The position numbers and the translations under genes were made by a program. From assembly GCA_035906255.1 (NCBI GenBank), contig JAMIFM010000029.1, positions 50,944-114,943 on the forward strand: 64,000 bases of DNA. The letters run 5' to 3'. Below are positions 2,327 through 40,664 of this stretch, in pieces. The DNA comes from Bacteroidia bacterium (GTDB lineage: Bacteria; Bacteroidota; Bacteroidia; UBA8524). Positions within the stretch are counted from its first letter, which is position 1, and each line of letters opens with the position of its first letter. The notes beneath the pieces are model-generated. The model searched no databases. It was given only the letters and a program-made list of their open reading frames with translations, and had not been told where the DNA came from.

Positions 2327-2558
2327 ATATTACACCGCCGTATGCTTTGACACGTTGAACGAAGCTGCCCAATTTTCACAAAGCTGCCTTTCCCCGCATA
2401 CAGGGGAAGATGCCGCCACACAGTATATGTACCCCGTCGGCTTTACCGATACAGAAAAATACGCCGTAGTGGTGTACGATTTAAACACCCTTTCGCAAGC
2501 AGACATTTTAAAAGTAACCATACAAAAAATAAGCACAGACTTTATACCCCTTCATTAG
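2316..2558 (+). CDS. Hypothetical protein (80 aa)
   Basis: ORF overlapping the previous stop by 11 nt. No motif. Confidence 0.45.
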   Translation: MDYKYYTAVCFDTLNEAAQFSQSCLSPHTGEDAATQYMYPVGFTDTEKYAVVVYDLNTLSQADILKVTIQKISTDFIPLH

Positions 2559-2560
2559 CC

Positions 2561-3636: not shown

Positions 3637-3684
3637 TGGTCGATAGTCAGCAGACGACAGTCCTCAGCAAAACCGTTGACCGTC

Positions 3685-3713
3685 GTCCGTGGACAGTTGA
3701 CCAAACACTAACC
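3685..3713 (+). promoter_or_regulatory. Conserved intergenic element, copy 2 (GTCCGTGGACAGTTGACCAAACACTAACC)
   Basis: Matches 1306-1335. Preceded by two copies of AGTCAGCAGACGAC (3601-3614, 3645-3658). Confidence 0.45.
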
Positions 3714-3736
3714 ACTAATCCCCAATCACAAAAAAA

Positions 3737-3934
3737 ATGGCACAACTCATCATTAACACCACAGAAACCGACCTTTTGGCGCAGAAAAACCGCGCTGCCG
3801 CCCTGCAACGCCTTGCAGACAGCCCCTTTTCCAACTCCTTTTTGTCACTATTGGCCGAATGGTCAAAAATCAAAGGGGCGGAAGAAAAGATTGTACAAAA
3901 TAAAGGAGCGATAAAAGCCAAACTGATACTGTAA
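3737..3934 (+). CDS. Hypothetical protein (65 aa)
   Basis: Preferred over the overlapping ORF 3636-3914 because the conserved element lies just upstream and the composition is more protein-like. Confidence 0.45.
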   Translation: MAQLIINTTETDLLAQKNRAAALQRLADSPFSNSFLSLLAEWSKIKGAEEKIVQNKGAIKAKLIL

Positions 3935-3935
3935 G

Positions 3936-4877: not shown

Positions 4878-5120
4878 ATGAAACGACTTAAAAACTTTTT
4901 TGCCATTGTCTATAAAAACCGCAGGACTTCGTTTGCGGGGCTGGTGTGCTTAATTGCCGCACGGCTGTTTTATACCGCCCAAATCTCCACCGAAGAATTT
5001 TTATCGGTAATGGGCTTTTGCTCTGCTTTGGGGTTCTTTCTTGCCAAAGACGGGCAAACCCAAACAGAATACGACAAAGAACATAAAACAGGGGCATACA
5101 CACGATGGGGGGGCAAGTGA
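4878..5120 (+). CDS. Small two-TM membrane protein (holin-like by size and topology only)
   Basis: 80 aa with two hydrophobic helices. Starts right after the upstream stop and lies upstream of the muramidase. Confidence 0.45.
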   Translation: MKRLKNFFAIVYKNRRTSFAGLVCLIAARLFYTAQISTEEFLSVMGFCSALGFFLAKDGQTQTEYDKEHKTGAYTRWGGK

Positions 5121-5671
5121 GGATAAAATACATTCTTATCTGCCTTTTACTGGCCGCTGTAATCGTATTTGTGTATTCCCTTAAATGCGATAGGTCGGAT
5201 AAGCCACCGACCGCAGCTTACCGACCGCCGACCGATACATGGGTTACTATCCCGCGCAGTGTCCATACTACCGACACGGTTACAAAAACCCTGTACGTTC
5301 CGATTGTGCAAACACCGCCCCACGATACGGTATTTATCGGAATAGATACCGCCCAAATCCTCCGTGAATATTTTACCAATAGCCTTTACAAAGAGGTGTA
5401 CTCGGACAGTGCTATGGAGATAGAAATTACCGACAGCATTGCCCACAACCGCCTTGTGTCCCAAAGTGTGCGCTACAAAACCAAAATCCCCCCTGTACCC
5501 CCTGCCGTTCAACTTTGGGCGGGGGTAATTGCCGATACCCGCAAAACAACAGGGGTGGCCTTGTACCTGAAAGACAAAAAACAACGGTTGTACGGGGTGG
5601 GGTTCTCTACCGATAAATCCGTTTGTTTCAGTGTGGCCGTGCCCCTTTTTAAAACAGGAGGCACACGCTGA
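5105..5671 (+). CDS. N-terminally anchored protein (188 aa)
   Basis: TM helix ILICLLLAAVIVFVY. 16-nt overlap with the upstream ORF across a G7 run (5107-5113). Confidence 0.5.
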   Translation: MGGQVRIKYILICLLLAAVIVFVYSLKCDRSDKPPTAAYRPPTDTWVTIPRSVHTTDTVTKTLYVPIVQTPPHDTVFIGIDTAQILREYFTNSLYKEVYSDSAMEIEITDSIAHNRLVSQSVRYKTKIPPVPPAVQLWAGVIADTRKTTGVALYLKDKKQRLYGVGFSTDKSVCFSVAVPLFKTGGTR

Positions 5672-6300
5672 TGGACGCTGTTTTTGAATTGTGGAACGAG
5701 TACATACTCAAAGAGTGGGAAGGGGGTATTGCCGACCGACCATTGCGCGATGACCCCGGTGGTTTAACAAACAAGGGGGTAACAATTGCCGTTTGGAAGG
5801 AATGGGCTCCCAAGTTATTTGGAATAACAGGCAACGAAACCACCCTGCGCCAACTCACCGAAGCCCAAGCCAAACGGGTGGCTTATGAAATCTACTGGAA
5901 GTTTTACGGCATTGACAAAGTAACCAATCCTGCCATTAAGCTGCTGCTTGCTGACTCAGTATGGGGCGGTGGCGGTTACAGCAGTTTGGGGTACAAAACA
6001 GGCAGTTACGCCCAACGTGCCGCACAAATCAACAAAGACAATCAAGCCAACTCCAACCTGTTTAATGTGCTTGTAAACCGCAGGCTGGCCTATTTGCGCA
6101 GCTTAAAGAACTATGAAGTAAACAAGAACGGTTGGGAAAACCGCGTGTGGAAGGGCGACCCTCAACGCCTTTCATTAACACAGGTGGTAGCCAAATACAA
6201 ACTTAACAACGCCGTAGTAGGTATTAGCTTGGTCAGTGCTATTGCATTGGCATTGGTAGCAAGGGCGGTGTACAAAAAGATTAAAAAGCCAAAGAAATGA
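5671..6300 (+). CDS. GH108-type muramidase / peptidoglycan hydrolase with C-terminal TM anchor
   Basis: N-terminus EWEGGIADRPLRDDPGGLTNKGVT fits the GH108 EGG...D.GG.T..G.T pattern. C-terminal helix VVGISLVSAIALALVARAV followed by a KK-rich tail. Confidence 0.7.
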   Translation: MDAVFELWNEYILKEWEGGIADRPLRDDPGGLTNKGVTIAVWKEWAPKLFGITGNETTLRQLTEAQAKRVAYEIYWKFYGIDKVTNPAIKLLLADSVWGGGGYSSLGYKTGSYAQRAAQINKDNQANSNLFNVLVNRRLAYLRSLKNYEVNKNGWENRVWKGDPQRLSLTQVVAKYKLNNAVVGISLVSAIALALVARAVYKKIKKPKK

Positions 6301-7073
6301 ACCTGCCAAAATTTAAGAACCAGCACGAAGTAAACCAGTATATCCAAACCTTTATCGCCCAAAAAGACGGTAAAGGGGAAGGATATACCACAGAAGACAA
6401 GGAACTGATAGCCCGTTATTCGGGTAGCGGCGGTCTTGCCTCCAAAGGGGCGAAAGCAGACGCAGGGCTACTGTATGAATTTTATACCCCTGATTGGCTT
6501 TGCGGATTAATGTGGAAACTTGCCCTGCATCACGGATATGACGGGGGAACGGTATTAGAACCTTCGTGTGCTACGGGTAATCTTTTTAAAGATGCCCCCG
6601 ATGAAAGTAAATGTGTGGGGTTCGAGACCAATCCCACCACTGCACGTATCGCCCAAATCCTTTATCCCAAAGCAACCATACATACTGGCTATTTTGAAAC
6701 GGCCTTTTTAGACCCCCCGCGTTTTGTCTCTAAACTCAAAGGCAAAACAACGTGGTTGAAAGAATACCCTTTTTCTTTGGTTATCGGCAACCCACCGTAT
6801 GGCCTTTACAAGAACCGTTACAGCAGCTACTTTGATAAAAGACTGTTTAAACAGGTAGAGATATTTTTCATTTACCAAGCCCTACAACTGCTCACTTCGG
6901 GCGGGCTATTGGTGTACTTGTTAAGCCAAAACTTTTTACGTACCGGCGATAAGTACAACAATGCAAAAGAGGCCATCGGAAAATATGCCGACCTGATAGA
7001 TGCTTACCGACTGCCCAAAGTATTTACACATTCGGATGTGCCTACCGATATACTGGTTTTGAAAAGGAAATAG
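6297..7073 (+). CDS. N6-adenine DNA methyltransferase (gamma-type motif order)
   Basis: EFYTP, then AdoMet motif LEPSCATGNLF, then catalytic VIGNPPYG. Confidence 0.8.
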   Translation: MNLPKFKNQHEVNQYIQTFIAQKDGKGEGYTTEDKELIARYSGSGGLASKGAKADAGLLYEFYTPDWLCGLMWKLALHHGYDGGTVLEPSCATGNLFKDAPDESKCVGFETNPTTARIAQILYPKATIHTGYFETAFLDPPRFVSKLKGKTTWLKEYPFSLVIGNPPYGLYKNRYSSYFDKRLFKQVEIFFIYQALQLLTSGGLLVYLLSQNFLRTGDKYNNAKEAIGKYADLIDAYRLPKVFTHSDVPTDILVLKRK

Positions 7074-7076
7074 CAG

Positions 7077-7298
7077 CTAATCGTCAAATATTGAAGTATA
7101 AGGCTTTATAAGGGTGAGGTTTTCTATTTCATCAACTTTTACATATTCCCTTTCCAGTGTAATGTGATTAAAAAACCGAAATGTCTGATTTGAATGGCTG
7201 AACTCTGAAAAGTAAGTCCCTTCGCAGTAAATGCCCTCCTTAGTAAAGAAGCTAATTTCATCAAGATAACTAAGTTCTTTCACTGAAACCTCTTTCAT
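7077..7298 (-). CDS. Hypothetical small protein on opposite strand (moron-like)
   Basis: The only reverse ORF inside the block. AT-rich. Start taken at MKEVSV. No motif. Confidence 0.4.
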   Translation of the reverse strand: MKEVSVKELSYLDEISFFTKEGIYCEGTYFSEFSHSNQTFRFFNHITLEREYVKVDEIENLTLIKPYTSIFDD

Positions 7299-7352
7299 AC
7301 CCCACAAAGATATAGCCTAAAGAAATAGGTAAAACATTTTAAGTTTTTAACA

Positions 7353-7565
7353 ATGACCGACAACCAAATACAACAACTAAGAACCGAAGTGCGCAAGGAG
7401 CTGCAAAACCTTGCCCCTTCCATATATCCATATTTTTCAAAGCTGGCAAAGGATGGCGACGGTTTAAACCAAGCAGAAGCAACGGTAATAGGATACATGG
7501 CAAAAAATGCCGTATCGGTGATGAGTGCCATTGCCCAATTGGAGGGGGAATATGAAGCGGGATAA
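7353..7565 (+). CDS. Hypothetical protein (70 aa)
   Basis: ORF whose end overlaps the helicase start. No motif. Confidence 0.45.
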   Translation: MTDNQIQQLRTEVRKELQNLAPSIYPYFSKLAKDGDGLNQAEATVIGYMAKNAVSVMSAIAQLEGEYEAG

Positions 7566-10500
7566 ACACCACGTATCACAGCATCCCAAGTTTGTAAGGG
7601 GCAGGCTCAAAGCATTTGCACACTTCATTGAGACGCTTCCAGATACCGAGGACAAGCACAGCCCCCGCGAACTTTTAAAAATGGGGTTTGTACACCCCGA
7701 TATTGAATACAACGTATCGGCCAAAACCGCACAGTTCGGGGTCAGCCAATCCGAAGCCCCCTTGACCTTTACAGAACTTACCAATTATTCGACGTGGTTT
7801 TATATACACCCCGAAAAAGTAGCAGGCCATGAAACGATAGTTACCTCGCGTGATTTTCCGATAAAAGTAAACGGCGACCGACAAACCATTACCAATACAA
7901 TTACACAAAACCTGCATATTTCATCCAATACCCCAAAGCTCCAACCCCAACATCCCGATTCTGATAAAATGAAACGACTAAGGTTAGCCACTGCCAAAGC
8001 AAAAGCACTTGCCCTGAAACTTAAACTGGATACCAACGCAATAAACGGGGTAGAAAGCGGTTCCCACATCGGCCAAAAATCGGCTCAAAATCGGCAAAAT
8101 ATCGGTGGTTTTCCGCCCTTAGACCCTGCCGTATATGAACTGCTAAAAACCCTGCCTTATGAAAAGGTATCGGGGTTATCGGGATTAGGTAAGCTAACCC
8201 CCGCCAAAGGCCAAAAACAACCCATGCTTTCCTTCAAAGAAGTGGATGAATTGTACAACGCAGGCATTACTACCGAAGAAAAGCAGGCGTGGGTGTATTA
8301 TCAAAAATCCAAAGGCAATAAAATGTTGGGGTGGGATAAGTACGATACCGGAAAACCCTCACCGCAAAAGATTACGGAATTGATGGAAAAAGGGGCGTTG
8401 TTTTACTTAGGCGGGGAATTATTGCCCTATCCTGTGTACTCCTACGGTAATATCTACGACCGACTGATAGACCTTGAAAAAGACAAAGCAGACATTGTAG
8501 ATACCTTTGGCCAAAAGGCATTTGAAGCCCATAAAAAGGCATTGGATACTGCCAAGCCCAAAGAAATAAGCGTACGTGCCCCCGATATTAAAGACCGTCC
8601 TAAAATCTCGGTGGTTTCAAAGTTTGCCTCAAATGAATTATCGTTTAAGATATACGGGTTAAACGAAGCATTGGTAGATGTTTCCTTACCCTCTGATGCT
8701 GCCAGTGAAGGAATATCCCTGCAACGGGCATTCTCGGCATGGATGAAGAAATTGGACGATACCCAATTTCAAAACGTAACTGCCTACGAAATCCAACGGT
8801 ACTACTTAGAAGCCCGCAATTACCCTCGTGGGATGGAAGAAGCCGAAAAGGAACTTATCGAGCAATACGCACCATTAGAGGGAGAACAACTCTTTTCGCG
8901 TTTCCTCTTTGAAGCCTTAACCGACGAAGACAAAGTAAAATTAGACTTTACGTGGAACCGCCAATACAACGGTCAAAGTTCGGTACAATACCAGCGCATC
9001 CCCGTAGGTTTTGAATGCTCCGCCATATTTAAAACCGCCCCCCTTTCCATTACCCCCATACAACGCGAAGGTATTGCCTTTATGACTGCCGTAGGCAGTG
9101 GCTTAATTGCTTACGATGTAGGGGTAGGTAAAACCATGACCGCCATTATCAATATTGCCAATGCCCTATACAGCGGTAAATGCAAACGTCCCCTAATTGT
9201 AGTTCCTAACCCCACCTATAACAAATGGTTAAAAGAACTTTTCGGGTACACCGATAAAGTTACAGGCCAAGAAATTTCAGGGGTGCTGACAGGAACGGGT
9301 TACCAGCTAAACGAATGGTACAATTTGGGAACGGACGTGCAAGGCAAAATTAACCTTAAAAACCCCGTTGCCGAAAAATCCGTTACCGTCCTTACCTACG
9401 AAGGGTTTATGCGTTTGGGGTTCTCTCAAAAACTAATGGAAGGGCTTTTTGAAGACCTTTCCCATATTATCCACCAAACTGACCCCGATAAAGGGGAAAC
9501 AAAACGGGACATTGCCAAACTCAATCAAAAGCTGGAGGAACTAATCGGCGGCTCTAACAAGGAAACGGTAGTCAATGTGGATGATTTGGGGTTTGACTTT
9601 ATCTGTGTGGACGAAGCCCACAACTACAAAAACGTTTTCAGTTATGTACCCCCCGATGAAGAAGGCAACAAACGCTTCAAATTCGACGGCGGCCAAAGCG
9701 CAAGGGCGCAAAAGATGTTCTTTATCACCAATTACATACAGCGCACCTATGGAGCGAATGTAATGATGCTGACGGCTACCCCTTTTACCAACAACCCGAT
9801 GGAAATCTATTCCATGCTCTCAATGGTGGGGTATGAAAACATGAAAAAGTACGGTGTTCGCAACCTGTACGATTTTATGGAAACCTTTATCAATCAGTCC
9901 TACGAGTATGTAATGACCTATCAGGGGGATATTGCCAAAAAGCACGTGGTAAAATCGTTTAACAACCGTTTGGTGTTGCAACGCTTGATATACAACCACA
10001 TTAACTACAAAACAGGCGAAGAGGCAGGGGTCAAACGACCTTGTAAAATCAACCTGCCCCGCACCACTAAAACGGACGAGAAAACAGGACTGCCCATAAA
10101 GCTACCCCCCAACGAGCAGGTAGTGACTTACCTGCAAATGACCGAAGAGCAGCAAACCAACCAAGCCTTTATTAACGACCATCCCAACAAAGTATCAAGG
10201 CTGGAAAAGCTAAAGGCCATTATGCGCTGTTTGGGCTGGAGCTTGGACAATGCGCTGTCCCCCTTCATCTTTACCAAAGAAACCCCTGCGGATTATAAAG
10301 AGTTTGTAGAGAAAAGCCCCAAAATCATGTACACCGTTGCGTGTATCCGTTCGGTAAAGCAATGGCACGAAAAGCGGAACGAACCCGTTTCAGGACAGGT
10401 TATCTATATGAACCGAGGCAAAGAGTACTTTAAGTACATTGTCGAATACCTTGAAAAAGAACTTGGCTTTAAGCCCTCTGTAAAATACAGGGGGGCAACG

Positions 10501-11751
10501 GTGAGCGAAGTGGAGGTAATCACTTCGGAAATTTCCCAATCCCGCCGTGAAATCATCAAAGATGCCTTTTTGGACGGGGTAGTAAAAGTAATTATCGGCA
10601 CGGCTACTATCCGCGAAGGGATTGATTTGCAGCGCAAGGGGACGGTGCTGTACAACTGCTACCCCGATTGGAACCCCACCGATGCTAAACAGTTGGAAGG
10701 ACGTATATGGCGGCAAGGAAATGAATACGGTTATGTAAGGGTGGTAATGCCCTTAGTTCAGGACTCTATGGACGTCTTTGTATTCCAAAAGCTGGAAGAG
10801 AAAACCCAACGGATTAACGATATATGGTACAGAAGCGACCGAGGCAATGTATTGGATTTGGATAGTTTGGATACCGAAGAGGTAAAATTTGCCCTTTATA
10901 CCAATATTGCGGAACTGGCCAAAATTGCCTTAGAGAAAGAACAGCGAGAACTGGACAACCAGCTCAAAATACTAAAATCCCAAATTGATACGGTCAATAA
11001 CGTTGCAGTTTACAAAGCAGGGCTATTAAAATACCGCGAGGAATGTAACAAATACCCGAATAACTGGCGGATTAGTTTAATGAACTTTTTAGCCAACTCT
11101 GCCGAAAACCAAGCTCCCCTGTGGAGCAAAACGGTAAAGGAAATGGAAGAAATTAGGGAACGTGCTTTTGAGCTTGCCAAAGAAATAGACGCTTACATGG
11201 TGCAGCCCCAACAAACCGACCGCGAACTATTGAACCTGTACCGTAAAGTATCCCCGACTGTTTTTGCCACCCGTTATATCCTAACTATACCGCATTCTAC
11301 TTTTGAAAGCCTTAAAATCTATATGGGTGCTATTGCAAAAGCGGAGAAAACCGTATTTGAGGCAAAAGGGTATTCAATGGATACAGATTTTGAGGTGGTG
11401 AAAGAACAACTGGTGCAAGAGCAGAACCGCATTGAAGAACTTTACGCCCAACTGAAAAGCCCCGAAAATTATTCCCGCATCACCGAGGATATTATCCGCA
11501 AAAAGCAAAAACTAAAAGTAAGCGGTCGTTTACCGCAAACAGCGGCAATGGACTTTGCAGGATTAAACCACCTGTTAGCCTATCAGTTTAATCCTACCGA
11601 CAATGGAAGTTGCATTATCCCGTTGCCCGGTGCTGCACCCAAACCCAAACCCCAAAACACCGAAGCTGATGACAGGGAACGTCGCAAACGCCTTGCGCTT
11701 GCAAAAGCAAAAGCCCTTGAACTTAAAATCAAATTATTAAACGTAGCTTAA
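7552..11751 (+). CDS. SNF2-family helicase-like protein, about 1400 aa, with long unassigned N- and C-terminal regions
   Basis: Walker A DVGVGKTMTAI, motif II CVDEAHNYKN, motif III LTATPFTNNPMEIYS, C-lobe GTATIREGIDLQ and WNPTDAKQLEGRIWRQGN. ATG at 7552 is preferred to the GTG at 7525. Confidence 0.85.
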   Translation: MKRDKHHVSQHPKFVRGRLKAFAHFIETLPDTEDKHSPRELLKMGFVHPDIEYNVSAKTAQFGVSQSEAPLTFTELTNYSTWFYIHPEKVAGHETIVTSRDFPIKVNGDRQTITNTITQNLHISSNTPKLQPQHPDSDKMKRLRLATAKAKALALKLKLDTNAINGVESGSHIGQKSAQNRQNIGGFPPLDPAVYELLKTLPYEKVSGLSGLGKLTPAKGQKQPMLSFKEVDELYNAGITTEEKQAWVYYQKSKGNKMLGWDKYDTGKPSPQKITELMEKGALFYLGGELLPYPVYSYGNIYDRLIDLEKDKADIVDTFGQKAFEAHKKALDTAKPKEISVRAPDIKDRPKISVVSKFASNELSFKIYGLNEALVDVSLPSDAASEGISLQRAFSAWMKKLDDTQFQNVTAYEIQRYYLEARNYPRGMEEAEKELIEQYAPLEGEQLFSRFLFEALTDEDKVKLDFTWNRQYNGQSSVQYQRIPVGFECSAIFKTAPLSITPIQREGIAFMTAVGSGLIAYDVGVGKTMTAIINIANALYSGKCKRPLIVVPNPTYNKWLKELFGYTDKVTGQEISGVLTGTGYQLNEWYNLGTDVQGKINLKNPVAEKSVTVLTYEGFMRLGFSQKLMEGLFEDLSHIIHQTDPDKGETKRDIAKLNQKLEELIGGSNKETVVNVDDLGFDFICVDEAHNYKNVFSYVPPDEEGNKRFKFDGGQSARAQKMFFITNYIQRTYGANVMMLTATPFTNNPMEIYSMLSMVGYENMKKYGVRNLYDFMETFINQSYEYVMTYQGDIAKKHVVKSFNNRLVLQRLIYNHINYKTGEEAGVKRPCKINLPRTTKTDEKTGLPIKLPPNEQVVTYLQMTEEQQTNQAFINDHPNKVSRLEKLKAIMRCLGWSLDNALSPFIFTKETPADYKEFVEKSPKIMYTVACIRSVKQWHEKRNEPVSGQVIYMNRGKEYFKYIVEYLEKELGFKPSVKYRGATVSEVEVITSEISQSRREIIKDAFLDGVVKVIIGTATIREGIDLQRKGTVLYNCYPDWNPTDAKQLEGRIWRQGNEYGYVRVVMPLVQDSMDVFVFQKLEEKTQRINDIWYRSDRGNVLDLDSLDTEEVKFALYTNIAELAKIALEKEQRELDNQLKILKSQIDTVNNVAVYKAGLLKYREECNKYPNNWRISLMNFLANSAENQAPLWSKTVKEMEEIRERAFELAKEIDAYMVQPQQTDRELLNLYRKVSPTVFATRYILTIPHSTFESLKIYMGAIAKAEKTVFEAKGYSMDTDFEVVKEQLVQEQNRIEELYAQLKSPENYSRITEDIIRKKQKLKVSGRLPQTAAMDFAGLNHLLAYQFNPTDNGSCIIPLPGAAPKPKPQNTEADDRERRKRLALAKAKALELKIKLLNVA

Positions 11752-11752
11752 T

Positions 11753-12469
11753 ATGATAGCCATTACCCCCAAAAACCTAACTACCGCCCCTATTAATTGG
11801 GCGTTATTACCCAAAGACCTGCAATCAGAAAAAGAGAACCTTGAACTCTACGAAGAATTTTACGACGAAGACACGTCTATCAAACAGAACGTGGATAAAC
11901 TGATAGATGTAATCAAGAAAACCCACAAAGAGGCAGGAAACAAGCCCGCCCCAAAAAAAGCAAGGGGAGTGAAAAAGCTACCTAAAGTTAAAGCCCCTGC
12001 TAAAACCAAACTGCCACGAAAAAAAAAGAGGACGGTAAAAAGGACTGCCGCCCCAAAGAAGAAAAAGGCAGCGGCCAAAAAGACGAAACGCAAAGCCATT
12101 GTAAAAACTAAAATCAAAGTGGTTAAAGAAAAAGCCCTTGTGAACGTTAAGAAATACAGCCTTGAATTACAACTGATAAAGTCTTTTATCGCCATGAAAG
12201 GCAAAGACCGCAAAGTAACCGCCATCCGTAACTTTTTAAAAAGGATAGAATCGGCTAAAAGCAATACCAACGTATCTTCTCAAAAATCCCTGCTTACCGT
12301 TATTGCCCAACGCATGAAAACAGCATTGGCAGGATTATCGGATAATGTGGAATTTGTGCGCAATATCAACATTGCTGAAGATTTGTTAAAGAAATGCAAG
12401 GAGGCTGTGAAAAATGCCAAGCCAAGATTACAAGTGCAATACTTATCGGGTTTGAAGCCAAAAAAGTAG
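11753..12469 (+). CDS. Lysine-rich, histone-H1-like probable DNA-binding protein (238 aa)
   Basis: Central roughly 70-aa tract KPAPKKARGVKKLPKVKAPAKTKLPRKKKRTVKRTAAPKKKKAAAKKTKRK. Starts 1 nt after the helicase stop. Confidence 0.55.
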   Translation: MIAITPKNLTTAPINWALLPKDLQSEKENLELYEEFYDEDTSIKQNVDKLIDVIKKTHKEAGNKPAPKKARGVKKLPKVKAPAKTKLPRKKKRTVKRTAAPKKKKAAAKKTKRKAIVKTKIKVVKEKALVNVKKYSLELQLIKSFIAMKGKDRKVTAIRNFLKRIESAKSNTNVSSQKSLLTVIAQRMKTALAGLSDNVEFVRNINIAEDLLKKCKEAVKNAKPRLQVQYLSGLKPKK

Positions 12470-13149
12470 GTAGGGCGGACAGTCCGCGGACACGTCCGAC
12501 GGGTAGTCCGTCCGTAAGAAAATTAGCTATATCGGGGTTTACTCCCATAAATGAAATACAGCCTGCAAAGGGCACTTTTAGCTTAAAAGGCGACCTGGGC
12601 AGGTTCTTAGGGAACTTGGAACGCTATAAGCTGGCCATCACCCTTGAGGGCGACCAAGGTTCAGGTAAAACCCAATTTGCGTTTCAGTTGGCCGACGGGT
12701 TTGCGGATTTGGGAATGAAAATCGGGTTTTACTCCTTAGAAATCGGAGCAAACTCCAATATCGTAATGACCAATCGCGATAAATACCTAAAACCTGCCAA
12801 CCGTGAACGTTTGTTTGTGAGTGAGGAAAACTCACTAAAAGACGTTCGGGAAAAGGCAAAGGTTTTTGATGTGATTATTATCGACAGTTGGACAAAGCTG
12901 GACGTGGATAGTTCAGAGTTTGATAAGCTGAGAAAGGATTTTCCGAACTGCATTTTTATTGTGATTTTTCAACGTACCTCACAAGGGAAAATACGCGGGG
13001 GAACTAAACCGTTGTACGATGCCGGAATAAATATCATGATTCACAAAGTGGACAATACTTTTACGAACAACTACGCCGATTGTACTAAAAACAGGTATGG
13101 GCAAACGGGTTTGCAGTATAATGTCAGCCAAAAACGGCTGGTAGGATAG
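12394..13149 (+). CDS. RecA/DnaB-like P-loop ATPase
   Basis: Walker A GDQGSGKT, FYSLEI (DnaB-like H1a), Walker B VIIIDSW. The only in-frame ATG lies 76 nt inside the upstream gene, so the true N-terminus is uncertain (see frameshift finding). Confidence 0.7.
   Translation: MQGGCEKCQAKITSAILIGFEAKKVGRADSPRTRPTGSPSVRKLAISGFTPINEIQPAKGTFSLKGDLGRFLGNLERYKLAITLEGDQGSGKTQFAFQLADGFADLGMKIGFYSLEIGANSNIVMTNRDKYLKPANRERLFVSEENSLKDVREKAKVFDVIIIDSWTKLDVDSSEFDKLRKDFPNCIFIVIFQRTSQGKIRGGTKPLYDAGINIMIHKVDNTFTNNYADCTKNRYGQTGLQYNVSQKRLVG
12460..12466 (+). other. Candidate -1 ribosomal frameshift slippery heptamer A_AAA_AAG
   Basis: In the zero frame of 11753-12469 the sequence reads cc[A AAA AAG] TAG. The -1 frame continues as KKVGRAD, which is the ATPase ORF. 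A GC-rich CGGAC/GTCCG cluster starts about 7-10 nt downstream. Confidence 0.45.
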
Positions 13150-13197
13150 AATTAAGTATATTTGCTTTCCTTGTTTAAGGAAAATTGCAATCGACAG

Positions 13198-13225
13198 GCC
13201 GCAGGGATGCGGCTTTTGCTTTTTT
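13198..13225. terminator. Bidirectional terminator hairpin
   Basis: GCCGCA-GGGA-TGCGGC followed by a T-run. Sits between convergent genes. Confidence 0.65.
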
Positions 13226-13841
13226 ATAAATTTTTTAACTTTTCTTTGAGTTCTATTGCTCTTTTCACAAGTGTCCTAATTCTTCCGATTGTTTTTTCCG
13301 GTTCCCCTTGTTTGTCATAAAAACGGTCTAAGGCATTACAGGCAGGGTTGCCTTTATTGCCAAAGTAATGAACAAACGTACTTTTATACAATTCATTTAA
13401 AGATTTGGCATATACAGGCTCAAAAAACTCTATGGTTTTAGAAGTGTTTGCCACCAACTTGCAAGCACAGTCGTATAACCTGAAGTCGTCTTTTTTCCAG
13501 TGCTTTTTATGAAAGAAGTATAAGTCCTCCAAAAGTTCTGCTTCAAATTCGTGAGAAACAATTCCACCTTTATAGAGGCGCTTTATTGAAAAATACAATT
13601 TGTCATTTTTATTATAACGCTTGCTGTAAGAAGAAATTTCTGTATCTGACTTGATTTGTTCTAACAATTCGGCACTGCTTAACGCCTCTACCTTATAATT
13701 CCCCGCAGGTGGTGCAGCATAAAAATCATTATCCAACGCACAGGTGATTGAAAAATCAATACCATCACGGATTTCCAAACGTTCCCCTGTTGTTTTATCG
13801 TAAAAATGGCCGTTTTTGTACGTTAATATTTTTGTTATCAT
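13224..13841 (-). CDS. Hypothetical protein (206 aa), orphan, AT-rich
   Basis: Long ORF. Start taken at MITKILTYKNG (ATG 13841). No motif recognised. Confidence 0.55.
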   Translation of the reverse strand: MITKILTYKNGHFYDKTTGERLEIRDGIDFSITCALDNDFYAAPPAGNYKVEALSSAELLEQIKSDTEISSYSKRYNKNDKLYFSIKRLYKGGIVSHEFEAELLEDLYFFHKKHWKKDDFRLYDCACKLVANTSKTIEFFEPVYAKSLNELYKSTFVHYFGNKGNPACNALDRFYDKQGEPEKTIGRIRTLVKRAIELKEKLKNL

Positions 13842-13959
13842 CTCGATTTCCGCAAATATAGATGAATTACCCCGCAGCATAGCTGTGAGAAATTCTTTAG
13901 ATTAAAACAGGTTGATGAATAAAAATGCTATTAATGTATAGAAAGAAAAGCACTAAACA

Positions 13960-14725: not shown

Positions 14726-15009
14726 AAAGTTTACCCAATAAAAAGTATCATTTTGCAGTTTTTCGTAAAATTAATAATAGCTGTTGCGATTTTTACCAAT
14801 TGCAGGAAAATACTATGAGATATTTTCGAAAACCATTTATACCTAAACAAAAAGAGCAACGATTATATAGCTATAACAATGATATTATAACTGTATAAAT
14901 TATTCAATCTAATCATATAGCATTGTGCTAAAGAAATTGCATGAAAAAGTTAAACCCAATTATTATATGTATTTCTATTATGAAAAAAGTAACTAAACAC
15001 AATTCATCT

Positions 15010-15822
15010 ATGAAAACCTTTGCAGGTAAAATCATCCTTGCTTCGGCATTCCTTCTATCTGTAATTTCAATCAAAGCACAACGTTGCGGGGTCAATGGCA
15101 TAACCTTTACCCAACAAGCAGGGTTTGGTAACAATAGCCAAATTATTATCGGCGGTTATGGCCAAAATGACGGTGCAATCAATTTTAACTGCTACAGCGA
15201 CAGTTCTGTTTATGGCCGTTCACGTATCTTCAACCGCCCTGTGGGTATGCTACCGCCTGCGGGTAGCCCCGTCCCCACATGGAGTTCACGGGTATTTCAG
15301 GACTTGCCTGCGGGCATCCTACGTATTCAAACCAGTGGGGTGAACAACGCTTGTTATGACTCTGTGAACTGGAACCGTGGGCTTACGATGCACACAAGTG
15401 GCAATGTAGGCATCGGTGCGAACCCCGTTTCGGGTTTTATGCTGGCGGTAAACGGCGGTATCGCCTGTAAAAACGATGTGTTTATCACCCTGACAGGCAT
15501 CACATGGCCTGACTATGTTTTTACACCTTCATACCGCTTAAAACCGCTTGCCCAATTAGAGCAAGAAATTGACAGCTTGGGACATTTACCTGAAATGCCA
15601 TCGGCGCAAACTGTGGAAGCCGAGGGAATGTCAGTAACAGACATTACAACTACCGTAGTTAAAAAGGTAGAAGAATTGACGCTCTACACCATCGACCAGC
15701 AGAAACAACTCGATGCGTTGGCGAAGGACAATGCCGACCTGAAAAAACAAACCGAGAAGTTGCTAAAGCGTAACGAAGAACTAAACGCTTTGGTTGAACG
15801 TCTTTTAAAAGAAAAAGAATAA
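15010..15822 (+). CDS. Secreted fibre-like protein with conserved C-terminal WPDYVF...HLPEMPS...EELTLY coiled-coil module
   Basis: Signal peptide MKTFAGKIILASAFLLSVISIKAQ (the ORF also opens at 14941 and 14980). The C-terminal 105 aa are homologous to the tail of 44038-45174. Confidence 0.7.
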   Translation: MKTFAGKIILASAFLLSVISIKAQRCGVNGITFTQQAGFGNNSQIIIGGYGQNDGAINFNCYSDSSVYGRSRIFNRPVGMLPPAGSPVPTWSSRVFQDLPAGILRIQTSGVNNACYDSVNWNRGLTMHTSGNVGIGANPVSGFMLAVNGGIACKNDVFITLTGITWPDYVFTPSYRLKPLAQLEQEIDSLGHLPEMPSAQTVEAEGMSVTDITTTVVKKVEELTLYTIDQQKQLDALAKDNADLKKQTEKLLKRNEELNALVERLLKEKE

Positions 15823-15844
15823 CTTTGAATAAATAACTTAATCA

Positions 15845-16639
15845 ATGCGTTTCCTTCTTTTTGTTTTGATTGTATTTTGGTTTATTTTAGGTTTAAGTAG
15901 TTGTAAAAAAGATTCTCCAGAAACAATACAGCCTGAACCTACCCCGAAACCGTATTATAATTGCAGGGTTTTGATAAATGACATCCGCGATGAGTTTGGA
16001 AATTTCGTAAAATTTGATACCCATATAAAAATGTTGGTAACAGACTCTATCGGAGATACTGTTTATACGGATTATTACTCAGCAAGTAAGACAGATATAA
16101 CTTTTCCGTTAACCATTGGCACATACACTATTGCAATATTTGATACAACTGAAAACTGGGCACCGTATTACATAAATCATAAGGTCTATCCACCAAGAGG
16201 TGGAGAGCCAAATATGTATACGATAGGGATGACAAAGCAACCAAAGTATAAGTTAAAAGTGGTTTCAACAATAGATACAACGGCAATAATCAATAGGTTT
16301 ACAAAAGAAAGGTATATTATTCTAAATTTAGTATCTACGGATACTGTGAATAAATCCTATTTTATTGCACATATATTTAAGAAACCGCAAAGTTATCCCA
16401 TAAATGACCCTTCAATTTTAACAGGCTTTTATAGTTATATTGAAAATGGCAAGGGTCATGTTTCGTTGAGTCTTTTAGATGCAAGCCATGAATTTATTGC
16501 CAAAGGTGATACATTTTACGTGGTTTTAGTTGAAGCTGCGAATAGTTGGTATTTCTGTTCAAAGACAGAAGGCTTTGGCAATAGGGTTTACTATAACGCT
16601 ACTGGTAAATCAGTACAAAACTTTCAATTCGTAAATTAG
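15845..16639 (+). CDS. Lipoprotein (264 aa), unknown function
   Basis: Lipobox LGLSSC. No counterpart in the paralogous operon. Confidence 0.65.
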   Translation: MRFLLFVLIVFWFILGLSSCKKDSPETIQPEPTPKPYYNCRVLINDIRDEFGNFVKFDTHIKMLVTDSIGDTVYTDYYSASKTDITFPLTIGTYTIAIFDTTENWAPYYINHKVYPPRGGEPNMYTIGMTKQPKYKLKVVSTIDTTAIINRFTKERYIILNLVSTDTVNKSYFIAHIFKKPQSYPINDPSILTGFYSYIENGKGHVSLSLLDASHEFIAKGDTFYVVLVEAANSWYFCSKTEGFGNRVYYNATGKSVQNFQFVN

Positions 16640-16641
16640 CC

Positions 16642-17436
16642 ATGAAAAGTTTAAAATTCTTATTTGTAGTAGTCTTAATAGGTTATTTAATTTTTTTCAA
16701 TACAAGTTGCAAAAAAGAAAAATGCCAAGACCCGACAAACCCTGAATGTGAGAACTACGACCCCTGCTACGGCGAAAAGCCCGTAATGGCAGAAATCGTT
16801 CTCTCGCAGCGGGCAGAACCCAGTTCAAGTGGAGTATTAGGAAAATTATACCTCAATGAAGGAGGAGATGTATTTCCTCGAATGCAAATCCGTTTCCATT
16901 GCCCGCTGGAAGGCGCAAAATATACATGGACATTGGGTGCGGAAACCATTACAGAGCAAACCTTTGAGCGGAATTTTTTTACTGTTCCATACGGCGTTTA
17001 TACAGTGAAACTCATTGTAGAGAAATCCCCCAACACCAATTGTTATCCGAGTGATGACGGCTTCGATACGGTGATAAAAACCTTCGAAATAGTTCCTGTA
17101 TGTGAATTAGAAACTATAGGGATTTTTAAGGGTAAATGGGACGGCGTCCCACAATTGGATAGTTCAGTTATTACATTTCGCTCATATAGAGATGCTTCAT
17201 ACTCAGATAGCTGTTCATTTGGACTTCCTGTATTTACAAACCTTCAGAACAAGGGGGACACATTGTATGGTGCTTATACCTACATATCGAATAAAGAGGT
17301 TGTTAATTACCACCCAGGCCATTTGGGGATAGGTAATCTAAATCTGAATGTAAATCCTCTAACAAAAGTTGTGGTACTTGATTACTACATTGGAACAACG
17401 CACTTTTTATTTAAGGGCAGGAAAATAGCTAATTAA
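16642..17436 (+). CDS. Lipoprotein (264 aa), paralogue of 43215-44030
   Basis: Lipobox FNTSC. Shares YTW..G, C.P.DD and a C-terminal F.G[KR][KR] pattern with the 271-aa lipoprotein. Confidence 0.65.
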   Translation: MKSLKFLFVVVLIGYLIFFNTSCKKEKCQDPTNPECENYDPCYGEKPVMAEIVLSQRAEPSSSGVLGKLYLNEGGDVFPRMQIRFHCPLEGAKYTWTLGAETITEQTFERNFFTVPYGVYTVKLIVEKSPNTNCYPSDDGFDTVIKTFEIVPVCELETIGIFKGKWDGVPQLDSSVITFRSYRDASYSDSCSFGLPVFTNLQNKGDTLYGAYTYISNKEVVNYHPGHLGIGNLNLNVNPLTKVVVLDYYIGTTHFLFKGRKIAN

Positions 17437-17452
17437 CAGAACCAATTACCTT

Positions 17453-20272
17453 ATGAAAAAAATTAAACAACGGCTGCTGTTAGCAGTAGCCTTGGTGTCA
17501 TACATCTGCTCATTCGGGCAAGATTGTGTACGCCTGATACGCACCAAATACGACAGTGCGCAAAACAATGAACTCTCTCCCTTTTTCCCGGGTAAAATCA
17601 ACCCGTGGTTAAACAGCTTTGACTTTGCACGTATAGACAACGGCACTGCATTTCATGACATCGACCTTAACCCGCTTGCAGGATGGATTATTCCCGGAAT
17701 GACGGGCAGCAATTACAAAATGAAAAGCCCGTTCAGCGTAGCTATGGCCTCTGAATACAATTATTTGAGCAGGCCATTTGGAGGAGGTAGCTCGGTGTAC
17801 GATGCAGATATTTGGTGGGAAGACGGATGGGAACTAATGTGGATGAACACAGGTTATTTTCCTAATGGAGACCCCGTTAACGTAGCTGATACAAACCGTA
17901 TTTTGAAGGGTAGTTATGGGTTAGCAAATCCAAGAACTCCATATATTATTTTATACAATCGTTATACGGGGAAGCTGAGAGTGTTTGCTAATTTATTTAC
18001 TGATTATAACAATTATAAAGACATCAGTATGGTATTAAAGCATACTCAGGGGTTAGATAAATCAGGTATATTCAGGCATTTGTTAAATTATGACTATTCT
18101 CTCGACCAACCAAGTAACATAATAGAGGTTCGCTCGTTTAATCACAACGAAAACAACAATACCTTGTGGTGGTCATCAGACTTTCAATTGGGTTATGACC
18201 CTTGTGTTTGTGAAAAGGAAAGCACAATCGATTTTTATTTTTGGGCACGTAAAAATCAAAATATTAATCTATATGGACGGATTGTTCAGCAGGATATGGA
18301 TTTATCGGTATTGGGCAATCCTGACTATAAAAACTTTCTTGCTAATGAAGCAGTAAATAGTGCTGCAAATGGAGCAGAAGGAGGAACACTGCTATTCAAA
18401 CGGTTTGATAGCTTGCTGGTGAAATACGACCGCGAGCTGGAATTATACAATACCCAACTCAACAGTTATAACCATCCGTTCAATTCGACCATGCGCACTA
18501 TCCTTAAATCCGCAAAAGATGGGGTAAGTGCCGCAGGGGGTGCGTTTGTTGCTAAACCATTGGGCGACTTCTTTTTACGCCAACTCGTAAAAATCGACGG
18601 TCCTACTAAGAAAGACACCACCACTGCATCAGGTTGGGCAGAAGAGGTGAACAAAGCTACCAAAGGTCAGTTAGGTAAAGCGTTTGACTTTTTGTCAATG
18701 GCGGCTTTGGGCGATGATTTTACCAAAGAACCGCAACGCCCCTCCATGCCGACCGCTACTTTCAGCGAAATGAAAATTGCTGGGGTAATCTCTGACTCAG
18801 GTTTTGTGAATGTATCGAATTTTTTAACACCCGGCTCATACAAATACCCGCAGCAATTAACTGCATATAATTACCCTGCCTACAATAATGCCGTGGGCTT
18901 ATACGCCCTATTGCGTAAGCCAGCAGTAAAAGGGCTGCGCGACCAGTTTCCAACCCGCACATTGGTATCCCTTGACACGGTGTTAGTCGATACCGTGGTT
19001 ACAGGCAGCATCAAGGTAATAAATATCCGTACCAACGAAGTAAATACCGTTGAGCATCATAACAAACTGTTTTTGAATGTTGCCGAGCCGTTGAAATACA
19101 AACTCAACAAAGCCCTCGATTTTGACATGGATAAAACCAAACTTTACGTGTCATTTTCCGTTGAGTTGGAAAACACCATCCCCAACGGTGACAACTGCTT
19201 TACGCTGCACCTGACCGAAGACAACGAAAACTTTTACCTACGGGACGTTATTCCTGTGCCAGCCACAACATCCTACCAGTTGTTTTATGAAACCCCGTGG
19301 AAAAATATCGAAGACATTGGCGACCATTTCTTCAAGATGGATTTCAAGAATAGCTACGAAGCATTTGGAGTGAGAAAAACATCATTGACGGTGTTTGAGG
19401 GCGACACAACCGTAAATGTGGGTGAACTGAAAGAATGCGTGGATGAAACCCAAGCCTCGTTCAAAATCAAAAAAATCAAAATGAAAGTGGCAGCCGATAT
19501 GTATTTTGACCAGTTGGGGTCGAACGGGTTGCAGAACAATAATTTCCAAACCTTCACCTATCTGTTGTTCGACCCTGCAAATGAAATTAACTGGATTACC
19601 GATGCGCCCGACTCGTCAGATGTAAAACGCAGGAAAGTAGATAATCTGTCATTGACCAACGAAGTGATTGAACCCACCGACCCGTTTGTATTTGAAACCA
19701 ACGGCAATACCTTAATCATCAATGCAAAAAATATCGACCTTAGCGGCACTATTAGTGTGCAATCGGGGTTTGATGCCGTATTGCAGGCTACCGGAAACAT
19801 CACGGGCATCAGCAGCAACACCAGCATTGGCCGTGACATCCGCCTGAAAAACGTCAGCGGATATTCACCTTTCGGTAAAAACTACGAAACCACCGAACAG
19901 GAATTGACCGACTATTGTAAAGACGGTGAAAACGGCTACCAAGCTCATAAAGCTGCTAATAAAATGGCAGAAGAGGCGACATCTGAATCACCAGCCGAAA
20001 CAGCAGAGGAAAAAGAAATAACGGTTTCCGTCTATCCAAACCCTACGCAAAACCGTTTGTTTGTTAGCACTTCGGCTGACGATGATAAAGAATATAGCTT
20101 TGCGGTAATTGATTTAATGGGACGCTCCCTTATTAATGAGACTGTTAGAGGCGCAAACCAACCGCAGTTTGAAATCACCACCGATGCACTGGCAGCAGGC
20201 ACATACCTGCTAATCATTAAAACGTCAGACGGTGAGGTAAACCAAGCACACCGAATAGTTATTCTGAAATAG
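17453..20272 (+). CDS. Large secreted protein with type-A T9SS C-terminal sorting domain (939 aa); N-terminal 850 aa unassigned
   Basis: Signal peptide. CTD VSVYPNPTQNRLFV...AAGTYLLIIKTSDGE...IVILK. Homologous to 40686-43202. Confidence 0.8.
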   Translation: MKKIKQRLLLAVALVSYICSFGQDCVRLIRTKYDSAQNNELSPFFPGKINPWLNSFDFARIDNGTAFHDIDLNPLAGWIIPGMTGSNYKMKSPFSVAMASEYNYLSRPFGGGSSVYDADIWWEDGWELMWMNTGYFPNGDPVNVADTNRILKGSYGLANPRTPYIILYNRYTGKLRVFANLFTDYNNYKDISMVLKHTQGLDKSGIFRHLLNYDYSLDQPSNIIEVRSFNHNENNNTLWWSSDFQLGYDPCVCEKESTIDFYFWARKNQNINLYGRIVQQDMDLSVLGNPDYKNFLANEAVNSAANGAEGGTLLFKRFDSLLVKYDRELELYNTQLNSYNHPFNSTMRTILKSAKDGVSAAGGAFVAKPLGDFFLRQLVKIDGPTKKDTTTASGWAEEVNKATKGQLGKAFDFLSMAALGDDFTKEPQRPSMPTATFSEMKIAGVISDSGFVNVSNFLTPGSYKYPQQLTAYNYPAYNNAVGLYALLRKPAVKGLRDQFPTRTLVSLDTVLVDTVVTGSIKVINIRTNEVNTVEHHNKLFLNVAEPLKYKLNKALDFDMDKTKLYVSFSVELENTIPNGDNCFTLHLTEDNENFYLRDVIPVPATTSYQLFYETPWKNIEDIGDHFFKMDFKNSYEAFGVRKTSLTVFEGDTTVNVGELKECVDETQASFKIKKIKMKVAADMYFDQLGSNGLQNNNFQTFTYLLFDPANEINWITDAPDSSDVKRRKVDNLSLTNEVIEPTDPFVFETNGNTLIINAKNIDLSGTISVQSGFDAVLQATGNITGISSNTSIGRDIRLKNVSGYSPFGKNYETTEQELTDYCKDGENGYQAHKAANKMAEEATSESPAETAEEKEITVSVYPNPTQNRLFVSTSADDDKEYSFAVIDLMGRSLINETVRGANQPQFEITTDALAAGTYLLIIKTSDGEVNQAHRIVILK

Positions 20273-40636: not shown

Positions 40637-40664
40637 CTGAAGCCGGTCTTTTGACCGGCTTCAG
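40637..40664. terminator. Terminator hairpin after the 838-aa cargo gene
   Basis: CTGAAGCCGGTC-TTTT-GACCGGCTTCAG 12-bp stem. Confidence 0.65.

Follow-up and report, generated by a model that had tools for sequence, protein, structure and literature searches.

What is built by an operon that encodes a tail fiber-like protein, two lipoproteins, and a large protein with a sorting domain of the type IX secretion system (T9SS)? The question is raised by a 64,000-nucleotide stretch of contig JAMIFM010000029.1 from a Bacteroidia bacterium (hereafter, the window). A first-pass annotation had listed four such co-directional open reading frames (ORFs), separated by 2 to 22 nt, on the plus strand (operon A) and, on the minus strand (45174-40686), a second operon in the order fiber-like protein, lipoprotein, and cargo with a C-terminal sorting domain (CTD) (operon B). 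The ORF list reproduces operon A exactly, with intergenic gaps of 22, 2, and 16 nt, and confirms the order of operon B, where the gaps are 7 and 12 nt (Table 1). Hereafter, the recurring proteins are called FIB, LIP, and CARGO, with the suffix A or B for the operon. The lipoboxes reported for the second and third ORFs of operon A (LSSC and NTSC) are visible in the translations, and the signal peptide and type A sorting domain reported for the fourth ORF agree with its translation and with its matches to PF18962 and TIGR04183. In the first ORF, the signal peptide and the coiled-coil tail with WPDYVF...HLPEMPS...EELTLY are present as described, but the annotated start (14941) is not retained. 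Because the database gene call of 270 aa (P0061), which begins at M24 (position 15010), gives a clean signal peptide ending in IKA before Q, the true start of FIB-A is probably 15010.

All three proteins of operon B proved to be distant homologs of their counterparts in operon A, as had been proposed, and the resemblance is beyond chance. CARGO-A and CARGO-B align over their N-terminal 264 aa (BLASTP E value of 3e-18, 27% identity), sharing the motifs EDGWEL/ADGWEL, PYIILYN, and YDPCVC, and again over their C-terminal halves (E value of 9e-14). The similarity between FIB-A and FIB-B (E value of 2e-20) is restricted to the C-terminal ~130 aa. Pairwise, LIP-A and LIP-B are only marginally similar (BLASTP E value of 9e-4); iterated profiles started from either of them converge on the identical 83 ORFs in related loci. 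In the alignment of this LIP family, W96, G99, C134, P136, D138, F257, and G259 are invariant or nearly so. Judging from these comparisons, operons A and B are two anciently diverged copies of one three-gene cassette. The second ORF of operon A (ORF2) lies outside the conserved cassette and is a lineage-specific extra between FIB and LIP: an iterated profile search of the related loci found its homolog in a single close relative (L008), and scans of Pfam, NCBIfam, PHROGs, and PADLOC gave no family match. The possibility that ORF2 is a third LIP paralog was rejected, because the hhalign comparison with the LIP family limits its similarity to the 30-residue lipoprotein signal.

The cassette is not peculiar to the source genome. 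When GTDB was scanned with one genome for each species, 57 loci were obtained, in all of which ORFs were called and searched with iterated hidden Markov models (HMMs) of the window proteins. The loci belong mostly to Flavobacteriales (Cryomorphaceae, Crocinitomicaceae, Brumimicrobium, Fluviicola, Owenweeksia, Putridiphycobacter, and Cryomorpha), Chitinophagales/Saprospiraceae, and Cytophagales, and one is from an Ignavibacteria metagenome-assembled genome. Enough upstream DNA to judge the presence of LIP is available for 62 CARGO genes; 57 of them have a LIP gene directly upstream on the same strand, with a median ORF-based gap of 5.5 nt. Before these 57 genes, LIP is present in one copy (49 cases), two copies (4 cases), or three copies (4 cases). 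Further upstream DNA, sufficient for FIB, is available for 47 cassettes, and FIB directly precedes LIP in 39 of them, with a median gap of 10 nt. Independent gene calls for three loci (L001, L003, and L065), metagenome contigs among them, show the same order with gaps of 1 to 3 nt or a 4-nt overlap. The earlier inference that the trio is a functional module and did not arise by recent duplication is therefore supported: the trio co-occurs widely outside the source genome, and the body of CARGO matches no characterized family in the searches described below.

Multiple diverged cassettes occur in single genomes. Cryomorpha ignava has three in tandem (L025) and further ones at two other loci (L028 and L046). 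Among tandem or paralogous cassettes, the CARGO proteins are 29 to 37% identical and the LIPs 33 to 41%. LIP itself forms tandem arrays of one to three copies with 31 to 96% identity, and orphan LIP genes follow CARGO genes at L003, L042, and L063. Three other genes recur near the cassette, namely, those encoding a small outer membrane barrel of ~216 aa (OMP_b-brl_2 in precomputed Pfam hits), which follows CARGO in 9 loci, its start codon overlapping the CARGO stop codon; a ~151-aa protein without family assignment, which takes this place in 8 other loci; and a LuxR-type regulator at 7 loci. Each is present in a subset of loci only, and they were rejected as conserved extra components. Examples with the barrel are found at L003 (3424-7094 and 8001-11506) and L001 (10961-11623).

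Within the cassette, the three genes are not bound equally tightly. For cassette A, the nearest relatives of FIB, LIP, and CARGO alike are at L007, L008, and L009. In cassette B, CARGO-B and LIP-B are closest to L058, whereas the head of FIB-B most resembles those of the FIBs at L010, L005, and L015. Because the FIB head of cassette B has different nearest relatives, the LIP-CARGO pair is, as far as these relationships indicate, the invariant core that is inherited together, with FIB as a modular accessory that can be exchanged. One could go further and regard the LIP-CARGO pair as the only unit, with FIB and ORF2 as independent operon neighbors, a view that overlaps with other readings discussed below. 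The FIB head type is indeed not co-inherited with the pair, 8 of 47 cassettes lack FIB, and in Aquimarina sp. AD10 (six copies), Sulfitobacter alexandrii (four), and A. spongiae (one), members of the FIB family stand alone or in tandem arrays, with neither LIP nor CARGO. However, FIB is directly upstream, at short distance, in cassettes from distant lineages, and because the observed frequency (39/47) would be hard to reach otherwise, selection for its linkage is indicated; we therefore consider it unlikely that FIB is a mere neighbor.

As to what the cassette does, we favor, tentatively and as no more than the leading possibility, a T9SS-exported, outward-facing surface module that binds or contacts other cells or particles and would consist of a lipoprotein-held CARGO and a probably trimeric fiber. 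This reading is based on the domain types of LIP and of FIB homologs, on the variable long hairpin of CARGO, and on the small outer membrane barrel that is occasionally encoded downstream. The following route is proposed. (i) LIP, FIB, and CARGO cross the inner membrane by the Sec pathway, as their sequences show: FIB and CARGO have signal peptidase I sites with Gln at position +1, and LIP has a lipobox. (ii) CARGO would pass through the T9SS translocon by means of its type A CTD and thus come to lie on or outside the cell surface, as expected from what is known of this domain family. (iii) LIP would be acylated, anchored in the outer membrane, and probably surface exposed in many members, where it is predicted to bind its cognate CARGO, holding or guarding it. 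This predicted contact is suggested by the strict adjacency of the two genes, their near-zero gaps, their co-inheritance, and their codivergence. (iv) FIB would form oligomers, held together by its C-terminal module and coiled coil, and would add an exchangeable binding head. The assembly would be a device for binding cells or particles or for contact-dependent interaction, and the several diverged cassettes of one genome may confer different specificities.

The closest parallels in cell contact are GhpA and SprB, Ig-repeat proteins of about 6000 aa; PorP- and PorE-like proteins encoded downstream of GhpA (GhpB/C) have been proposed as its anchors (bioRxiv 10.1101/2024.01.29.577165). Like the proposed surface module, these systems combine a Sec- and T9SS-dependent substrate at the cell surface with adjacent accessory outer membrane genes and a role in cell contact, and the small OMP_b-brl_2 barrel downstream of some CARGO genes recalls the outer membrane anchors downstream of GhpA. 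They differ in that CARGO has ~900 aa, a type A domain, and an upstream lipoprotein partner. SprB-type cargos use type B sorting domains.

CARGO is the largest and least familiar component. The signal peptides in the translations of the two window proteins are MKKIKQRLLLAVALVSYICSFG, followed by QDC, and MKKIVFVLFNTLISFLVYA, followed by QTT, and the Gln at the predicted cleavage site (Q23) is invariant in an alignment of 29 CARGO sequences; Gln at this position is usual in Bacteroidota. The sorting domains score above the curated cutoffs of PF18962 (Por_Secre_tail; E values of 7.7e-10 for CARGO-A and 1.3e-10 for CARGO-B) and TIGR04183 (type A; 3.9e-9 and 2.5e-10, respectively). When CARGO-A was searched without its sorting domain, 60 clusters were found, all of them unnamed or named “T9SS type A sorting domain-containing protein.” To estimate family size, both window CARGO proteins, again without sorting domains, were searched with HMMER against 1.84 billion cluster representatives; 1150 proteins were found at an E value of ≤1e-3, 738 at ≤1e-10, and 243 at ≤1e-30, so that the family comprises ~1150 clusters at 50% identity. 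The best 150 relatives mostly have 800 to 1050 aa, anything shorter being a partial or truncated protein, and the sorting domain is present in 154 of 160 full-length family representatives (96%).

No known family was recognized in the ~830-aa body of the window CARGO proteins in Pfam, NCBIfam, PHROGs, and PADLOC scans or in PDB sequence and profile searches, which returned CTD structures only; a Pfam scan of the 29 aligned members gave Por_Secre_tail alone. Scans of all seven window proteins with the four libraries, and of 22 LIP family members with Pfam, added nothing except weak PKD matches in LIP. This, together with the unconvincing structural matches described below, bears out the first-pass annotation, which could place the N-terminal parts in no family. 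More specifically, no peptidase domain was found in the window proteins or the 29 family members (Pfam, NCBIfam, and PDB), no toxin, hydrolase, or other enzyme domain in any library scanned, no member of the leukocidin, MACPF, or aerolysin families in the Pfam and NCBIfam scans, and no vWA domain in Pfam.

An AlphaFold2 model of CARGO-A (pLDDT 77.5, pTM 0.63) is rich in beta structure. It shows a well-defined N-domain (residues 24 to 270), very long strands (residues 492 to 543 and 627 to 707), and a small beta unit (residues 730 to 800), which is followed by a linker and the sorting domain. Conservation peaks at the N-domain motifs (DGWEL, PY.ILYNRY.GKLR.F, and DPCVC) and at residues 421 to 500 and 541 to 560. 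E127, R176, D218, D249, C251, and C253 of the N-domain are invariant. The least conserved and most indel-rich parts are the long hairpin (residues 501 to 540) and residues 581 to 660; the hairpin region 492-543 is the most variable of all, with 14 to 31% gaps.

When the model was compared with the PDB by Foldseek, staphylococcal leukocidin and gamma-hemolysin prepores headed the list (E value of 4e-5, probability of 0.87), with target-normalized template modeling (TM) scores of 0.19 to 0.21 and a root mean square deviation (rmsd) of ~30 Å. S-layer proteins, GH2 enzymes, class II viral fusion proteins, and adhesins followed with matches of comparable quality. A good superposition is obtained for the sorting domain alone; elsewhere, the top matches in the PDB and BFVD have TM scores of about 0.3 or less and large rmsd values, BFVD being no better. 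Because of these low TM scores and large deviations, we treat the CARGO body as having no structural match.

These data bear on the main alternative explanation, namely, that CARGO is a guarded effector or toxin, either membrane active or a novel enzyme, with LIP as its inhibitor or immunity protein and FIB as the part that targets victims. The prepore matches, although a weak resemblance, would fit such a role, and the invariant N-domain residues, which are acidic, Arg, or Cys, would suit an active site. CARGO also shares with beta-barrel pore-forming toxins (leukocidin, alpha-hemolysin, and MACPF) a beta-rich, elongated, secreted architecture with long hairpins. However, TM scores of ~0.2 mean that there is no real superposition with any of the toxins matched, no sequence family links them to CARGO, and no toxin, peptidase, or hydrolase domain turned up in the libraries. 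Nor is there a conserved hydrophobic or amphipathic insertion element: across the family, the median maximum hydropathy is 1.18 in the insert and 1.03 in a control region, and the long hairpin, rich in indels, is where CARGO is least conserved. Two modes of membrane insertion were considered in their own right and rejected, (i) an alpha-helical pore former, for which the hydrophobic Gly/Ala-rich stretch of CARGO-B (hydropathy of 1.83) was the candidate, since this stretch is not conserved in the family, and (ii) insertion of a beta-hairpin, since the long hairpin is the most variable and indel-rich region.

A further argument for a guarded effector comes from a known system. In Tannerella forsythia, lipoprotein ORFs directly upstream of the T9SS cargos known as KLIKK peptidases encode potempins, outer membrane beta-barrel inhibitors that form stable complexes with the peptidases and shield the bacterium from them (PMC9890683). 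Gene order and tight coupling are the same in the cassette: the LIP gene is co-directional with and immediately upstream of the gene for a CTD cargo (gaps of 16 and 12 nt in the window), an outer membrane lipoprotein with a small barrel is involved, and there are several cognate pairs per genome. The up-and-down topology of the LIP barrel (see below), the LIP tandem arrays and orphan LIPs, and the coexistence of diverged cassettes in single genomes would all suit immunity proteins. In contrast, KLIKK cargos are recognizable peptidases, whereas the body of CARGO matches no known domain; a potempin consists of a single barrel (98 to 132 aa), whereas LIP has 264 to 271 aa, about twice that size, and combines a PKD-like domain with a barrel; there is no sequence or Foldseek link between the two, potempins being absent from the top 50 Foldseek matches of LIP; and the KLIKK system has no fiber gene. 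It is also confined to one oral species, while the cassette is present in dozens of environmental species. Taking these points together with the setting of the cassette and its plasmid-borne relatives (see below), we regard the guarded effector as a possible but doubtful explanation.

LIP is the component with the clearest structure. A lipobox-type Cys after a hydrophobic signal was located in 79 of the 83 LIP ORFs, and C23 is invariant in the family alignment. In LIP-A and most other members, the lipid-bearing Cys is followed by a Cys-rich linker, C.DP.NP.C.NYDPCYG. The AlphaFold2 model (pLDDT 88.7) consists of a PKD-like domain and a C-terminal small, up-and-down beta-barrel that resembles fatty acid-binding protein (FABP) or calycin barrels, and weak Pfam PKD matches are present in 6 of 22 members. 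Among the Foldseek matches, Bacteroides surface glycan-binding lipoproteins come first (SGBP-B; E value of 1.5e-3, probability of 0.95, TM score of ~0.2 at full length). PKD domains (TM scores of 0.5 to 0.6 relative to the target), FABP-type barrels (~0.43), and a B12-binding surface lipoprotein (7biz) are also among the matches. A surface export signal, C-X-K-(D/E)2, has been defined experimentally at the lipid-bearing Cys (PMC5080379). Of the 79 LIPs, 40 have K at +2, 38 have K at +3, and 46 have D or E at +4, while 26 have two or more acidic residues between +3 and +6; the commonest residues are K, K, and D/E. In many members this region resembles the defined signal.

Two further explanations turn on LIP. 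First, its barrel might hold a small hydrophobic or glycan ligand and CARGO might capture it, in the manner of SGBP, Sus-like, or hemophore-type systems. LIP shares with SGBP-B the lipid anchor, an Ig/PKD-like spacer, a compact C-terminal beta domain, and, in many members, export signal-like residues, and its matches to the B12-binding lipoprotein and FABP-type barrels point in the same direction. However, these matches are weak (E values of ≥1.5e-3; TM scores of ~0.2 for full-length matches), and the cassette does not lie in a polysaccharide utilization locus or beside SusC/D: in the loci examined, no SusC or other TonB-dependent transporter or uptake gene is conserved beside it. CARGO has no recognizable binding or catalytic domain, and FIB would have no role in such a system. 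Ligand or nutrient capture is therefore improbable in our view.

Second, the arrangement could be an Mfa-type pilus operon, in which the lipoproteins are type V pilins and CARGO is an Mfa5-like accessory or tip subunit. The mfa operon likewise combines lipoprotein genes with a CTD-bearing cargo, and many type V pilin structures are available in the PDB. Yet none of the 50 best PDB matches of LIP is a FimA/Mfa pilin, no Pfam pilin family matches the window LIPs or 22 family members, LIP is shorter than type V pilins, and CARGO lacks a vWA domain. A type V pilus was rejected on the ground that LIP shows no pilin fold in Foldseek, and the Mfa-type explanation as a whole, largely refuted by these results, is very improbable.

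FIB connects the cassette to phage tails. Its conserved part, GNVGIG...[WP]PDYVF...HLP..PS...EELTLY with a coiled coil after it, has a much wider distribution than the cassette and is found with variable heads in Bacteroidota and some Proteobacteria; LamG, YadA head, and fn3, which are adhesion-type domains, and InlB-type repeats occur as heads on FIB homologs. The C-terminal module is present on 28 IMG/VR contigs. In one of them (L074, 3607-6243), it ends an 878-aa ORF directly after a baseplate wedge gene, and in another (L069, 5473-6306), it lies beside tail and tail fiber PHROGs. Resemblance to endosialidase-type phage tail fibers, which end in a trimerization or intramolecular chaperone domain, extends to the GNVGIG-type motifs, the conserved C-terminal module, the coiled coil, and the position of the module at the ends of ORFs in these phage tail clusters; some database entries of the FIB family are in fact named “tail fiber protein” or “Chaperone of endosialidase.” The differences are that FIB has no PF13884 domain (Peptidase_S74; no match in FIB-A and FIB-B at an E value cutoff of 1 or in 10 homologs at 0.01), that a cellular FIB starts with a Sec signal peptide and has a short head, and that the module has no match in 50,697 GenBank phage records. 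From its position and conservation, we infer that the FIB C-terminal module is a fiber-terminating oligomerization module. The FIB arrays mentioned above are located at L064 (1375-7883) in Aquimarina sp. AD10, where the array is followed by a subtilisin-type T9SS cargo, and at L067 (2978-8263) in Sulfitobacter alexandrii.

Relatives of CARGO also exist outside the cassette. Homologs of its core are encoded on Vibrio plasmids (L096, 7386-9824, and L097, 7602-10292; NZ_CP072682 and NZ_CP080240), with a tblastn E value of 6e-13 and family HMM E values of 3e-59 and 2e-36. These proteins of 812 to 896 aa have Sec signal peptides and the motifs GWEL, PY.ILYNR..KLRV, and DPC, and they cover the N-domain, the insert, and the first beta region of CARGO. 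One of the genes is flanked by IS5 elements, and one protein has an extra N-terminal region of ~160 aa without assignment. Members, invariably with a hypothetical annotation, were found in V. coralliilyticus, V. lentus, V. campbellii, and V. parahaemolyticus, and PDB sequence and profile searches with the Vibrio homologs gave no match. Occurrence at insertion sequence-flanked plasmid loci, including that of V. coralliilyticus, would suit a guarded effector, but the absence of an adjacent lipoprotein there speaks against a guard. Because the Vibrio homologs stand without LIP, FIB, or T9SS domain, LIP appears not to be needed for the activity of the CARGO core.

Signs of mobility are seen around the cassette, too, and they likewise favor an effector. 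In a 3.79-Mb contig (L065, 1-14804), a full FIB-LIP-CARGO cassette stands amid mobile element genes, with TrwC relaxase, integrase, AlpA, single-stranded DNA-binding protein, and methylase genes on one side and mercury resistance genes (MerR/MerT/HMA) on the other, which suggests that it is carried on an integrative element. In the window, an island of atypical GC content adjoins operon A. A phage-borne cassette was considered and rejected, as no CARGO relative was found in IMG/VR. The boldest form of the effector explanation would make CARGO a structurally new, T9SS-delivered attack protein, guarded by LIP and aimed by a subunit derived from phage tail fibers, that is, a counterpart of receptor-targeted bacteriocins or contact weapons. 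Such a protein might damage membranes or degrade cell surfaces with a fold not yet represented in the PDB, and its core would also have moved onto Vibrio plasmids, including that of a coral pathogen. We consider this specific form quite unlikely.

The surface module reading, which we continue to favor tentatively, has to be weighed against several observations that count against it. (i) The predicted contact between LIP and CARGO is deduced from gene linkage. (ii) The invariant N-domain residues are more in keeping with a catalytic or partner-binding site than with the variable tip of an adhesin. (iii) The adhesin and S-layer matches in Foldseek are as weak as the toxin matches. (iv) The Vibrio homologs of the CARGO core have no adjacent LIP or FIB and no T9SS domain. 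(v) LIP-A and LIP-B continue after the lipid-bearing Cys as CKKEK and CKPDK, with one acidic residue each, so that they match the export signal partially and their surface exposure is uncertain. (vi) FIB has no T9SS CTD, lipobox, or barrel that would account for a route to the surface. (vii) FIB has been swapped between cassettes and occurs alone or in arrays without LIP and CARGO in the Aquimarina and Sulfitobacter genomes named above, and it may be only loosely tied to the LIP-CARGO pair.

The kinds of components are known (T9SS cargo, outer membrane lipoprotein, and tail fiber-like protein), and for a T9SS cargo paired with a lipoprotein, one precedent has been characterized. With the exceptions noted for FIB, the cassette proteins are named “hypothetical protein” or “T9SS type A sorting domain-containing protein” in databases, and neither the family nor the cassette turned up in literature searches on the motif, T9SS toxins, immunity lipoproteins, and tail fibers. 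There are hundreds of thousands of T9SS cargos, and the large ones that lack enzyme domains are mostly unexplained. Our analysis defines a large unannotated family among them, with a near-obligatory LIP and a frequent FIB, in freshwater, marine, and sludge Bacteroidota. Besides KLIKK/potempin, it offers a second case for the notion that T9SS cargos have dedicated lipoprotein partners, and FIB shows a cellular use of a phage tail fiber C-terminal module. If CARGO is an effector, the cassette would represent a new class of weapon in abundant environmental bacteria; if it is part of an adhesin complex, a new surface architecture. Culturable carriers are available (Cryomorpha ignava QSSC 1-22, Brumimicrobium mesophilum JCM 14063, and Putridiphycobacter roseus SM1701).

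Table 1. Features of the two cassettes and their surroundings in the window
Feature	Position	Strand	Description
FIB-A, secreted tail fiber-like protein	14941..15822	+	293 aa as ORF
FIB-A layout			Signal peptide IKA/Q, Cys-containing head, GNVGIG motif, WPDYVF...HLPEMPS...EELTLY module, coiled coil
ORF2, extra lipoprotein	15845..16639	+	264 aa, lipobox LSSC
LIP-A, cassette lipoprotein	16642..17436	+	264 aa, lipobox NTSC, Cys23
CARGO-A	17453..20272	+	939 aa
CARGO-A signal peptide	17453-17518	+	Cleavage before Q23
CARGO-A conserved N-domain	17519-18262	+	Residues 23-270; motifs DGWEL, PYIILYNRYTGKLRVF, YDPCVC
CARGO-A low-confidence helical insert	about 18350-18724	+	Residues about 300-425, AlphaFold2 model
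CARGO-A beta-rich body	18740-19957	+	Variable long hairpin at residues 492-543; linker after
CARGO-A type A CTD	20024-20269	+	
FIB-B, tail fiber-like protein	45174-44038	-	378 aa; other head type, same C-terminal module as FIB-A
LIP-B, cassette lipoprotein	44030-43215	-	271 aa, lipobox LVSC
CARGO-B	43202-40686	-	838 aa (P0200); type A CTD at residues 758-829 (about 40716-40931)
Terminator-like hairpin	40637..40664	-	12-bp stem, 8 G-C pairs, 22 nt past CARGO-B stop codon
PorV/PorQ-family outer membrane protein	47613-46615	-	NF033709, 177 bits (cutoff 90)
NHL-repeat lipoprotein	46614-45385	-	Directly upstream of operon B, 210 nt away
LamG-like protein	1364-2326		In higher-GC region
GH108 phage-type lysozyme	5671-6300		In higher-GC region
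Eco57I-like N6-methylase	6297-7073		In higher-GC region
SNF2-family helicase	7525-11751		1408 aa; in higher-GC region

The remaining observations concern the surroundings of the cassettes and a few aberrant copies. The terminator-like hairpin marks the end of operon B. No perfect TAnnTTTG motif was found upstream of operon A or B, and a sigma-70 promoter scan is uninformative for Bacteroidota. A T9SS-related gene of the PorV/PorQ family lies near operon B, whereas the core T9SS genes (sprA/sov and porK-N) are not within the window, and PorU and PorV are encoded about 3 kb upstream of the cassette at L001. Because the window gene has no homolog clustered with the ORFs of other loci, this neighborhood is not general. 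The first 12,000 nt of the window, near operon A, have a GC content of 0.44 to 0.50, versus about 0.41. The higher-GC region (1-13880), which also includes several ORFs without a family, looks like a defense or mobile island.

A few records containing the cassette are labeled as Bifidobacterium, Saccharibacteria, Akkermansia, or Oscillatoria amoena (L030, L057, L060, P0009, P0180, and P0185); because the T9SS sorting domain is present in them, they are probably misbinned or contaminating Bacteroidota contigs. Truncated CARGO genes are seen at L051 (Brumimicrobium mesophilum) and L045. In Putridiphycobacter roseus SM1701 (L048, 7992-9101), an in-frame chimera of the CARGO N-domain (residues 1 to 297) and the FIB C-terminal module lies between two LIP genes. 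As this was the sole case, with no other CARGO-FIB chimera among 194 family proteins, such fusions were rejected as a Rosetta stone link between the two families, and the chimera is most simply explained by an in-frame deletion between tandem cassettes.

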